Shown piece after piece: positions 25,601 to 28,600 of a stretch of DNA of 64,000 bases. Source of the stretch: a plasmid; the sequence record NZ_CP067021.1. The stretch is one strand, 5' to 3'. Position numbers: made by a program. Numbering within the stretch: the first letter of the stretch is position 1; the number at the start of each line of letters is the position of its first letter.

Positions 25601-28600
25601 CGGAACGAATGCCATAGCAAGTAGCCGACGACCAGCATGCGCACCATCAACTCCGGGTCAATCGAGGGACGCCCGATGGGGCTATAGAAATCTGCCAGGT
25701 AGGCACGTAGATCACTGAGATCCAAGCACTGGTCGATGCTGCGCAGGAGATGTTGGGCCGGGACGTGATCTTCCAGATTGAACGAGTAGAACAGGCGCTG
25801 CTGTCCTCCCGGTAACTGTCCCATCATGCTGTTCGCCCCCACGCTCGCTGACAAAGCAATTTTGCCAACGGCATGGGGAGGCCGCTACTTTTTCAACAGA
25901 ATCGGCCGCACACAGCCATTCGGCTCAACAGAACCCTGCCTTTACCCCACCAAACTCCGGAAACTCGCCCGGTAGTCCGTCGGCTTGAGATGCACATGTT
26001 GGCTGAGGTCGCCGGGTAGCGTGAACAGGCGCGGACCGTCCCGAAACTGGAACACGCGATACAGATGGAATTGATCGCCCGCCTCCTTGGAGAATTCGAG
26101 TTCGTTGTGGCTGACCAAGAAAGACGAGCCTACCCCGCCATTGGTGGTTTTCACCTCGATGAAGCGCTCATGGGCGTCCTCTTCGAACGACAGGATGTCG
26201 AACCCCGCACCGTCTCCCTGGGTGTCGGACACCCAATCCAGCCGCTGAAAAAGCTCTGGGTGGCCGAGCTCGGTCAGGCGTTGCTGTTCGTAGCCAATCA
26301 CCCACTGCTCCCCTGCCCGGCCCAGCTTGCGGTTGGCTTCATCGCGAGCGGCATAATCGAACTTTCGCGGTAGGCGTTGCCGTAGAGATGCCGGGGTACG
26401 CACAAGCACTTCACGGGCGGGTGGTTCTACCAAAGCCGCTCGGTAGGTTTTGTCACCCGGAAGTTTTACCTCCTCCAGGGCATCGACAAGAGCGCCGACC
26501 GTCTGCTGATGTTCCAGAACGTAGGCGTGTACGGATTTACGCAGCAGCAGTTGGCTGTTGCCGCGTGGCTTGTAGCCGTTGATATAGGGCAGGCCCAGGG
26601 CATCGAGTACGGCGCTAATGTTCTGGTGCTTGAGCTCGACTGAAGACTTGCTGCGACCGTTCAGCAGTTGGCGCAGTGCCTGGTTGTGCTCGGACTTGTT
26701 GTACGGCTCCCCAGCCGCCTCGGCACGCAGCATGTCGAAATAGTCTTCGACCGTGGCCAGGACCTCTTCTTCGGACCAGTCTTCGCCGATGCGAATGATG
26801 CGAAACCCGAGCCGCGTCAGCGCCGGAACGACGGTCGCCTCGCCACCGGAGAAGCTGTCAGCAGTGAGCGGGCCCTGCTCGGGAAATTGCTTGCCGAAGG
26901 CCACACCGGCGATGGCCTTGGAATCGCAATCGGTGCCGGTCTTCGGATCACGTACCAGGAAGTCGCGGGACTTGCCGTAGCCGTGGCGCGCCAGGAATTT
27001 CGTGCGGCCCAGTTGCACGAACTCATCGATGGCAGCCTGCACGGCGGCGGGGCTTCGAAGCTGGGAGAGTTGAGACACAGGGTCCTTCCTTACTGTCATG
27101 GTGTGCCGGGAACCGCCGAGCCACGAGATTATGAGTAGCCCCTGAACAGAAACGTCACGATAAAAGCCGTGAACGCCACCAGGCCCATTAAATCCCTTGC
27201 GTATTTGCAGCCCGTGCTGTCCAAACCTGTACCAGGTCCGATCAACACGCTCCAACCATTGAGGTACGAAAACACCGCCTGACCGAACAAAAAATGCGTG
27301 ATAGCCGCCGCAGCCATGACGCCGGAATCGTCAGACAGGCTGTAGCTGTTGACCATTGCCCTGTACGCCTGCATCTGAAATGGCTATTGCCCTGATGGGA
27401 GCCGGCTTTTCAGCCACCGACACCAGCGATGCCGTCAATATTCTTTACCCGATAACCATGACCGTACAAGCTAACAAGGCCTGGCAAGCCAGCGGACTTA
27501 AAAAGTCTTTTTTTCTACCATCCCACAAAAAAGTTCGTGGTGGAGAAAAGATAAGCTATGCAAGGCTTTAGGAGACGTGGTTTTTCAGGATGACGAAGAA
27601 CGATTCGGCGCTAGGTGCAACATAGGTGCATCGCACGAGCGCTAGGAACGGCGAAAAAAGGCGGACGTGGCGAAATCGGTAGACGCAGCAGACTTTAAAA
27701 TTGGAGTGCCCGCGGGGAAATCCGCGGAGTAGAACCGCTCAAAGTCGGGGAACGCTAACGGGCAATACCCTAAGCCAATCCCGAGCCAAGCCCCTTCGGG
27801 GGAAGGTGTAGAGACTGGACGGGCGGCGCCTAAAGCCTTCGGGCAATGGCGAAGGGACAGTCCAGACCACGAACGTCATCAGACGGCGGCGAAAGTCGAG
27901 GTGGTACGAAAATCTGCTTCTCTGTGAGAGTACGGGTTCGAGTCCCGTCGTCCGCACCACAAAGCCAAACATCCCTGCGATGATCGACCTCTGGGCGTTT
28001 GGTCGTGAGCCCGCCACCCTCGCGCTACGCTTTGCGCAGGCGTCGAAGGCGATCAGGTGCGCCCATCGATTCCGTCGAGCACCATCGCTGCGAGTTCATC
28101 GCTGGTGTGTGCACCACTATCGAGAACACGGGTTGTGCATGGAAGCCGTTCCCTTGCGGCCAAGCATCGGGCGACATTCGCTAATCGCCACTCTCGAATC
28201 TCCGCATTTCGATTCGGGTCAGGATGCATGGTCTGGTTCGCGATCCGGTGACGCAATAGGTCCTCGTTGAGCGTCAGAAAGATGTGCAGCAGCTGATCGT
28301 CGATCCGCCTTACCCCGTCGAGTATCTCAGTCAGATAGTCCGGGTGCACGAGCGTCATTGGGATGATGATGTCCTGCGAGTAATTCCTTCGAATCTCCCT
28401 GACCGCCGCGATCGTAAGTCCCCTCCACAAGGGGAGATCCTGATAGTCTCCGCTCGCTGGCATGGGGACCGTTTCTTTCACCACGAACCCGATTTCCTCG
28501 GGGTCAAAGATCAGCGATTTGGAACGCCGATCGCGCAGCCGCTTAGCGAGCGTCGTCTTTCCGGCGCCGAAAGGTCCGTTGATCCAGATTATCATTGTCG

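Follow-up and report, generated by a model that had tools for sequence, protein, structure and literature searches.

We analysed a 64,000-nt stretch of plasmid DNA (sequence record NZ_CP067021.1; "the window" below means this whole stretch), which is a plasmid region of the Acinetobacter pittii / A. baumannii type, with blaOXA-58 nearby according to matching plasmid records. The element in question is a type II tRNA-Leu(UAA) gene at 27661-27959, which lies beside tmrB and the gentamicin-resistance gene aac(3)-IId and whose two exons are separated by a 213-nt intron. It is highly probable that this element is a structurally intact alphaproteobacterial tRNA-Leu(UAA) gene, split by a small IC3-type group I intron without an open reading frame (ORF), and that it was captured passively together with a 2-kb chromosomal fragment. 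The parts of the gene and the paired segments (P) of the intron are as follows.

27661..27695, plus strand: exon 1 of tRNA-Leu(UAA), with the acceptor 5' strand, the D arm, the anticodon stem 5' strand and C32-U33-U34
27696..27908, plus strand: group I intron, small IC3 type, 213 nt, from the Rfam RF00028 match and the covariation model
27692-27697 with 27702-27707, plus strand: P1, with U34·G at 27695/27704
27710-27727, plus strand: P2, with a GAAA loop
27735-27740 with 27821-27826, plus strand: P3
27745-27750 with 27779-27784, plus strand: P4
27754-27775, plus strand: P5/P5a
27785-27807, plus strand: P6/P6a, with a UUCG loop
27811-27817 with 27858-27863, plus strand: P7 (pseudoknot), with the bulged A 27812 (A152) and the G-C pair 27813/27862 (G153-C202)
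27827-27851, plus strand: P8, with a UUCG loop
27866-27905, plus strand: P9/P9a/P9b, three-way, with a GAAA loop in P9b
27908, plus strand: terminal G of the intron (element position 248)
27909..27959, plus strand: exon 2 of tRNA-Leu(UAA), with A35-A38, the anticodon stem 3' strand, the long variable arm, the T arm, the acceptor 3' strand, the discriminator A and the encoded CCA

When the exons were joined (27695 to 27909), the resulting 86-nt RNA was called by ARAGORN as tRNA-Leu(taa). The features of a type II tRNA-Leu are present in it, including the 7-bp acceptor stem, the long variable arm, the T arm GGGTTCGAGTCCC, the discriminator A73 and the 3' CCA. An earlier reading of this DNA, made by a model from the sequence alone (the original prediction), had given these exon coordinates, the tRNA-Leu(UAA) identity and an insert of ~213 nt after U34, and all of this was exact to the base according to the ARAGORN call on the spliced form and 18 homologues. 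It had also held that the exon halves assemble into a cloverleaf, and the minimum-free-energy fold of the spliced RNA is indeed a cloverleaf with a long variable arm.

The 18 homologues came from a motif scan with the core GAGCCAAG-N(4-34)-AAGGTGTAGAGACT, which covered one genome per species and returned at least 120 loci. The 18 loci, in alphaproteobacterial and acidobacterial genomes, align over the whole 299-nt element, and all of them (18/18) are tRNA-Leu(UAA) genes in which the intron follows ...GACTT (U34) and ends in a G that precedes AAAATC. The insertion point is between U34 and A35 of the anticodon. The intron of the window has no ORF and encodes no homing endonuclease.

The window copy and the 18 homologues were combined in an alignment of 19 sequences, and a model of P1-P9 plus the cloverleaf (87 pairs) was evaluated on it. 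We found that 95.9% of the cells form a standard pair, compared with 32-45% when the 3' partners were slid by 1-3 columns, and the observed pairing values were reached in 0 of 500 shuffles. Compensatory changes, with both sides of the pair changed, were found at 39 of the 87 pairs, and they are located in P2, P3, P5, P6a, P7, P8, P9a and P9b. The tRNA stems (acceptor, D, anticodon, variable and T) are 94.7-100% paired with covariation. Furthermore, the splice-site pair U34(27695)·G(27704) is U·G in 19/19 sequences, and the pair next inward from it in P1 covaries (AU 10, UG 6, GU 2, CG 1). The guanosine-site pair G153-C202 in P7 is G-C in 19/19, and the bulged A152, the terminal G248, P4, most of P7 and the AAA of the joining segment J3/4 are also invariant. 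In the window copy all 87 modelled pairs form. Its departures from the family consensus are compensatory (A-U to G-C in P7, G-C to A-U in the T arm), with one exception, a G at element position 240, and the same G is found in the chromosomal copy of Brucella anthropi. Judged by these comparisons, the window copy carries no plasmid-specific damage, and the alignment shows a group I fold with all canonical features of the catalytic core, conserved and covarying.

The intron was also recognised by a general model. The Rfam group I intron model (RF00028) matched 27686-27878 over its whole length (1-253) with 36.8 bits and E = 8.6e-8, in a search at permissive thresholds on 27500-28100, and the E-value refers to those 601 nt. 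In intron mode, ARAGORN reported an intron-containing tRNA at exactly 27661-27959, but misplaced the junction, because group I introns are outside its model. The conserved group I core and the terminal G of the original prediction are thus supported by the RF00028 match, the covariation and the invariance of G248.

Four bacterial tRNA genes are known to harbour group I introns, and cyanobacterial tRNA-Leu(UAA) is among them (PMC1995217; PMC4476775). The intron of the cyanobacterial and plastid trnL gene has the same host tRNA-Leu(UAA), the same U34/A35 site and the same compact ORF-less group I class, and there the anticodon stem likewise contributes to P1 and P10. Compared with it, the intron lineage of the window belongs to Alphaproteobacteria (with copies in Acidobacteriota) and is GC-rich, and the copy described here is borne by resistance plasmids. 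This likeness lies in host gene, site and class; the cyanobacterial locus in our comparison (L088; loci compared are denoted by L and a number) is a tRNA-Arg(CCU) intron.

The closest relative identified that has experimental data is the alphaproteobacterial tRNA-Arg(CCU) intron (Agrobacterium tumefaciens type; Bartonella bacilliformis BbgpI, PMC7717549), and guanosine-dependent self-splicing has been shown for the Bartonella intron (PMC7717549). The core of the window intron matches the tRNA-Arg(CCU) introns of Neorhizobium, Phyllobacterium, Rhodobacter and Mesorhizobium at 77-82% over ~175-190 nt, and the two kinds share a similar size, the GAAA loops and the P7 sequence. In addition, the tRNA-Arg(CCU) intron is likewise missed by annotation pipelines and lies in an unannotated tRNA gene. 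However, it interrupts another tRNA at another position of the anticodon loop, and P1 and the internal guide sequence differ accordingly. Since the host here is tRNA-Leu(UAA) and only the ribozyme core is similar, the window intron is a relative of the tRNA-Arg(CCU) family and not a member of it.

The crystal-structure model for IC3 introns is the tRNA-Ile(CAU) intron of Azoarcus sp. BH72. It presumably shares with the window intron the core GAGCCAAG...GAAGGUGUAGAGACU(A/G)GACGG, the AAA in J3/4, a GAAA loop in L2 with a CCUAA-type receptor in P8 and a length of ~200 nt. It differs in its tRNA host and in its betaproteobacterial organism, and the extra P9a hairpin belongs to the window intron.

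In the wider motif set, ARAGORN intron mode assigned 121 intron extracts as Leu(taa) 30, cat 13, Arg(cct) 10 and none 31, a rough tally with misplaced junctions. The IC3 core motif was also seen in a Methanosarcinaceae archaeon metagenome-assembled genome (MAG; L080), in Vibrio agarilyticus (L110) and in a Lachnospiraceae MAG (L063). Archaea are said to have no group I introns (PMC3984707), and the archaeal match at L080, for which ARAGORN intron mode gave no host tRNA, is noteworthy unless it is a binning artefact. Meanwhile, a proteobacterial MAG (L024) has two intron cores ~500 nt apart on opposite strands (5632-5665, plus; 6135-6167, minus). One of these copies is apparently truncated, since its match to the element (90%) covers positions 1-171 and goes no further. 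This arrangement suggests a local duplication or rearrangement of an intron-containing tRNA-Leu locus.

The origin of the gene can be approached from its flanks. The window from 27490 to 29520 is collinear with a chromosomal locus of B. anthropi (L141-L143, from GCA_008932875.1 and two other assemblies), with 81.6% identity over 2,040 nt, and the collinear block holds the leader, the tRNA gene with its intron, the spacer, tmrB and aac(3)-II. The right edge of the alphaproteobacterial DNA is at ~29520. This locus was reached by an AAC(3) protein search and is absent from the motif-scan loci listed. Identity between the window and B. anthropi is 100% in exons 1 and 2, 95.3% in the intron, 81.2% in aac(3)-II, 80.3% in tmrB (nucleotide), 78.5% in the leader and 41.9% in the spacer. 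With 95.3% in the intron against ~80% in the flanking genes, the intron is under far stronger constraint than its protein-coding neighbours, and this pattern shows strong purifying selection on the split tRNA gene in its native lineage. Among the motif-scan matches listed, the nearest copies of the tRNA with its intron are those of a Bradyrhizobiaceae genome (L040, 95.0%), Novosphingobium (93.4%) and Rhodovulum (89.4%), and the homology of the Bradyrhizobiaceae locus runs on for ~170 nt upstream of the tRNA gene.

The resistance genes lead to the same lineage. The nearest non-plasmid homologues of TmrB are metagenomic (88%), followed by Sinorhizobium meliloti (81%) and Paracoccus/Geminicoccus/Microvirga (61-70%), and those of AAC(3)-II are in B. 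anthropi and Ensifer sp. (85-86%) and in metagenomes (up to 87%). The B. anthropi neighbourhood includes Metal_resist, an extracytoplasmic function (ECF) sigma factor, EF-hand proteins, BA14K and DJ-1, and it is common to Sinorhizobium and Ensifer-like loci. A second lineage (L138-L140, L144) has the last ~46 nt of the intron and exon 2 beside tmrB, with unrelated DNA upstream. Since this lineage keeps the 3' piece of the tRNA beside tmrB, the adjacency is older than the capture onto plasmids. The comparisons indicate that the source of the aac(3)-IId/tmrB fragment is the chromosome of a soil-dwelling member of the Hyphomicrobiales (Brucella/Ochrobactrum-Ensifer relatives). In the searchable literature, which excludes most subscription journals, we found no paper stating such an origin. 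The original prediction had supposed a distant GC-rich donor carrying tRNA introns, and for this block the collinear B. anthropi locus agrees with it.

In the Hyphomicrobiales the aac(3)-II/tmrB pair is chromosomal at several loci (L129-L131, L137 and L141-L143), with 81-87% identity to the clinical genes, and the conserved chromosomal neighbourhood spans S. meliloti (tmrB only) to B. anthropi and Ensifer-like genomes. No tRNA lies beside aac(3) and tmrB at L129-L131 and L137, or beside the single tmrB of S. meliloti (L132-L134). In addition, a Salmonella IncFII contig (L135/L136) carries an aac(3)-II/tmrB stretch that is 96.6% identical to the window, with TmrB 89% identical at the protein level. 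There, an IS91-family (Y2 transposase) element directly follows the pair, a beta-lactamase gene precedes it, and there is no tRNA. Related alphaproteobacterial fragments have thus entered plasmids in at least two arrangements.

The leader of the tRNA gene begins inside a relic of a tRNA-Leu 5' half, with the hairpin GGACTTAAAAAGTC at 27494-27507 followed by a T-run at 27508-27514. Both B. anthropi and the Bradyrhizobiaceae genome have, ~155 nt upstream of the split gene, a relic corresponding to positions 1-38 of an intronless tRNA-Leu(UAA). Its sequence is GCGG(T/A)CGTGGCG.AA.TGGTA.ACGCAA.GGACTTAAAA, after which come AGTC and a T-run with a hairpin- and terminator-like look. The relic is located at 27478-27514 of the window, at 6958-6997 (minus strand) of L141 and at ~3517-3560 of L040. 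The window keeps only its 3' end, and the left edge of the captured DNA (~27490) is inside it. The relic may be the trace of an older replacement at the tRNA locus or of an integration event. Furthermore, the block GATTCGGCGCTAGGTGCAACATAGGTGCA (~27602-27630) is conserved among three leaders of alphaproteobacterial type, and by its conservation it is a candidate native promoter or processing signal.

The surroundings of the element in the window are as follows.

24292-~25900, minus strand: ISCfr1 (IS1182 family), with its transposase frameshifted in the window
25945-27078, minus strand: DUF3883/NOV_C gene (ScoMcrA_N and NOV_C)
27079..27489, no strand assigned: junction DNA between the Pseudomonadaceae-like and alphaproteobacterial parts, holding orf228 and the start of orf192
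27129-27356, minus strand: orf228, a small hypothetical ORF
27380-27571, plus strand: orf192, a small hypothetical ORF
27490..27660, plus strand: upstream leader of the tRNA gene, homologous to B. anthropi L141 and Bradyrhizobiaceae L040
27960..28052, no strand assigned: spacer from the tRNA 3' end to the tmrB stop codon, in collinear alignment with L141 and L138-L140
28053..28595, minus strand: tmrB-like AAA-family ATPase gene, 180 amino acids (Pfam AAA_33 and AAA_18), convergent with the tRNA gene
28608..29468, minus strand: aac(3)-IId aminoglycoside 3-N-acetyltransferase gene (NCBIfam AAC_3_II, 541 bits)

These features form a GC-rich island (57-60% GC) in surrounding DNA of ~37-41% GC, and the island lies between two direct IS3-family copies (22044-22343 and 29539-29838; 23023-23264 and 31759-32000), which are ISAba14-like in one matching plasmid record. 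Such direct copies bracketing the GC-rich module are a composite-transposon-like arrangement in an Acinetobacter plasmid.

The original prediction had taken the GC-rich segment as the contribution of one donor. This holds for the tRNA-tmrB-aac(3) block, which is alphaproteobacterial, but not for 24292-27077, which is ~90% Stutzerimonas-like. The latter region aligns over 2,787 nt, at 89.6% identity, with Stutzerimonas kunmingensis L122 (8002-10768), where the same IS1182-family element lies beside DUF3883, and the homology ends at the start codon of DUF3883. The closest homologues of the DUF3883 protein are those of Stutzerimonas and Pseudomonas (88-90% amino-acid identity). A single donor for the whole segment was therefore rejected, because the DUF3883 relatives are of Stutzerimonas and Pseudomonas and the homology stops at 27077. 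The junction DNA at 27079-27489 gave no protein family match and no homology to any locus compared. By these comparisons, the module is a three-part chimera, with a Hyphomicrobiales part (27490-29520), the junction (27079-27489) and a Pseudomonadaceae-like part (24292-27077).

At the Stutzerimonas and related metagenomic loci (L122-L125), a DEAD/UvrD helicase gene of 1,714-1,729 amino acids is found where the homology with the window stops. At one such locus, DUF3883 lies beside an OLD-TOPRIM/UvrD (Gabija-like) pair and an integrase. The helicase with DUF3883 resembles a two-gene defence system, of which the plasmid module has only the orphan second gene.

The module is well known as DNA. The window from 23828 to 29502 is 99.95% identical to pCTX-M3 over 5,675 nt, and the module is aacC2-tmrB-orf192-orf228-orf1182-ISCfr1, with the tRNA gene and its intron between tmrB and orf192. 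The one indel in this alignment over the ISCfr1 transposase corresponds to its state in the window, where the gene (24456-25854, minus strand) is split into overlapping ORFs of 125 and 378 amino acids, compared with a single coding sequence of 456 amino acids in pCTX-M3. The window copy of ISCfr1 is probably inactive. This module is the one of pCTX-M3, pEl1573 and Tn2 derivatives, and its published and RefSeq descriptions give protein-coding ORFs only; the published description of aacC2-tmrB-orf192-orf228-orf1182-ISCfr1 lists no tRNA or other RNA gene (PMC7096625). The searchable literature on the module mentions neither the RNA gene nor a chimeric Hyphomicrobiales/Pseudomonadaceae-like origin, and it does not tie tmrB or ISCfr1 to a tRNA-Leu gene, a group I intron or Ochrobactrum. 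Papers naming both ISCfr1 and tRNA were irrelevant, as judged by titles and abstracts.

A 321-nt query spanning the element matched 1,292 plasmids in PLSDB, with at least 99% identity in 1,273 of them. The carriers belong to Escherichia, Klebsiella, Salmonella, Acinetobacter, Enterobacter, Shigella, Citrobacter, Aeromonas, Raoultella, Pseudomonas and other genera. Meanwhile, 636 of 5,426 complete Escherichia coli genomes (11.7%) carry the element. The original prediction had called it very unusual, and this did not hold, with ~1,290 plasmids and more than a tenth of these genomes carrying it. In the RefSeq E. coli records, from which alone the lack of annotation was judged (PLSDB gene tables omit RNA genes), no feature is annotated under the element. 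For example, the 481 bp that separate tmrB from a hypothetical ORF are left blank in the chromosome of E. coli AR_0013. The element is a constant and overlooked part of the widespread aac(3)-IId/tmrB/ISCfr1 module.

We propose the following working of the gene, in which self-splicing would follow established group I chemistry. In the native lineage (Hyphomicrobiales, with relatives in Brucella/Ochrobactrum anthropi), the precursor would be transcribed from its own upstream region, and the intron would fold into P1-P9, with the GAAA tetraloops of L2 and L9b and receptor-like motifs in P8 and P5. An exogenous guanosine would be bound at the G-C pair of P7, and cleavage would occur after the P1 U·G pair, that is, after U34. 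The terminal G would then take the place of the cofactor, and the exons would be ligated. RNase P and other tRNA processing enzymes would release the 86-nt tRNA-Leu reading UUA and UUG. As to the spread, the 2-kb chromosomal fragment (leader, tRNA with intron, tmrB and aac(3)-II) would have been joined to the Pseudomonadaceae-type ISCfr1-DUF3883 fragment, presumably with a role of ISCfr1 in the mobilisation, and IS26 or ISAba14 would have accompanied the composite in its spread into Enterobacterales and Acinetobacter. It is possible, but rather doubtful, that the plasmid-borne gene is expressed and spliced in clinical Enterobacterales and Acinetobacter. Related aac(3)-II/tmrB modules lack the tRNA, and for this reason we regard the gene as most probably a neutral passenger in these plasmid hosts.

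Several observations weigh against our reading of the element. With 36.8 bits, the RF00028 match falls short of the gathering score (50), and a search of the window at Rfam gathering thresholds was negative; the Rfam tRNA model was not significant on the unspliced sequence. The thermodynamic fold is barely better than that of shuffled sequence (z = -1.3), and with this signal weak the case for the structure rests on covariation. Over the block, the identity of the B. anthropi locus is only ~81%, which makes B. anthropi a relative of the donor rather than the donor itself. The near-100% identity among plasmid copies reflects recent spread and carries no information on selection there. Finally, a scan of 27100-28150 found no E. 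coli sigma-70 promoter and one minus-strand terminator-like site at chance level. Since no promoter of E. coli type was found, transcription in plasmid hosts is uncertain; the scan was strict, used the E. coli sigma-70 consensus and is uninformative about expression.

The points on detection are explained by controls. Default ARAGORN, without intron mode, reported no tRNA in the 64-kb window, and likewise none at four homologous loci. On homologous alphaproteobacterial tRNA introns RF00028 gave 31.8-43.3 bits, and on the Nostoc tRNA-Arg(CCU) intron 52 bits (L040, L053, L067, L085 and L088 were the loci behind the RF00028 and ARAGORN controls). Relatives of an intron family with proven self-splicing score below the cut-off as well, and the sub-threshold scores are therefore a matter of the models. 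The original prediction had named covariance models that fail to score the intron or the tRNA as evidence against it, and with negative default screens this would seem to be the case here. Its proposed covariance checks came out divided, with a significant full-model RF00028 match and scores short of the curated thresholds. The negative default ARAGORN and Rfam screens are false negatives. In addition, many genome annotations probably lack the host genes tRNA-Leu(UAA) and tRNA-Arg(CCU).

The silence of default ARAGORN and of Rfam at gathering thresholds is also what a chance resemblance or a decayed pseudogene would give. We consider the probability of this negligible, given the full-model Rfam match (E = 8.6e-8), the 87/87 pairs in the window copy, the strong covariation, and exons and intron at 100% and 95.3% identity to a chromosomal gene whose neighbours have diverged to ~80%; the covariation and the B. 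anthropi comparison effectively refute it. A different alternative agrees with our reading on the nature of the element and differs only on its activity in plasmid hosts. According to it, the gene is intact but untranscribed or inconsequential in the present hosts, and it is kept by its position between tmrB/aac(3)-IId and ISCfr1. We lean towards this view. The leader is alphaproteobacterial in origin and has no sigma-70 consensus, the tmrB end of the query finds ~700 plasmids more than the tRNA does, and aac(3)-II and tmrB occur without the tRNA in related modules such as the Salmonella IncFII contig, so resistance is independent of the tRNA. Furthermore, E. coli has its own tRNA-Leu(UAA) gene, leuZ. 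However, the promoter scan was strict, read-through transcription could occur, and the D-loop, the discriminator A73 and the encoded CCA would seem compatible with enterobacterial processing and charging.

The tRNA pieces near the resistance genes could also mean that tRNA-Leu(UAA) is a hot spot of integration or recombination, with the resistance pair as an island targeting the tRNA and the pieces as remnants of attachment sites. This would fit the second lineage (L138-L140, L144), which holds only ~46 nt of the intron end and exon 2 beside tmrB, the 1-38 relic ~155 bp upstream in B. anthropi and Bradyrhizobiaceae with the left edge of the captured fragment inside it, and the occurrence of aac(3) and tmrB together in two or more different alphaproteobacterial neighbourhoods. 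However, no integrase adjoins the pair at any locus examined, the Brucella, Ensifer-like and Sinorhizobium loci all place the pair in the same conserved chromosomal neighbourhood, and no matching 3'-half repeat was found in the 10.8 kb that L141 covers; we regard this explanation as unlikely. Still another idea is a functional coupling of the intron to aminoglycoside resistance, in which aac(3)-II would protect a drug-sensitive tRNA maturation or the intron would be a drug sensor. The adjacency of the intron-containing tRNA and aac(3)-II predates the plasmid capture, and the self-splicing of group I introns is subject to non-competitive inhibition by aminoglycosides, which bind these introns (von Ahsen, Davies and Schroeder 1992, cited after PMC2754922). 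However, this effect is known only in vitro, at micromolar drug, and the genes are convergent and not co-transcribed. Moreover, each partner is found without the other: L129-L131 and L137 have the pair and S. meliloti has tmrB alone with no adjoining tRNA, and the same tRNA with its intron occurs without the pair in Bradyrhizobiaceae, Novosphingobium and Rhodovulum. Such a coupling is very improbable in general, and it is equally remote that in clinical hosts the plasmid-borne gene is transcribed and self-splicing, with an aminoglycoside-sensitive splicing coupled to aac(3)-II.

The kind of element, a tRNA group I intron, is classical and was known already. What is new is its location on mobile resistance DNA in clinical Gammaproteobacteria, its unannotated prevalence, and its value in tracing aac(3)-IId/tmrB to a Hyphomicrobiales origin. 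Thus, a heavily sequenced resistance module contains an unannotated tRNA gene with a ribozyme-type intron; other group I introns are not known from E. coli except in phages. The result also reveals a weakness of annotation: a whole group of alphaproteobacterial tRNA introns escapes tRNA finders at default settings and falls under the Rfam gathering cut-off. In addition, the element offers an easy experimental system, a small natural group I intron on a plasmid that is already in E. coli, beside a gene that inactivates group I inhibitors. The intron-containing tRNA with tmrB and aac(3)-II serves as a lineage tag for the resistance gene and narrows the origin of aac(3)-IId/IIe-type genes. If the coupling were true, the maturation of a tRNA reading UUA and UUG would be drug-dependent, or the acetyltransferase would protect that maturation. 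If the gene is expressed and spliced in its plasmid hosts, a natural group I ribozyme would be active in about one in eight sequenced E. coli.

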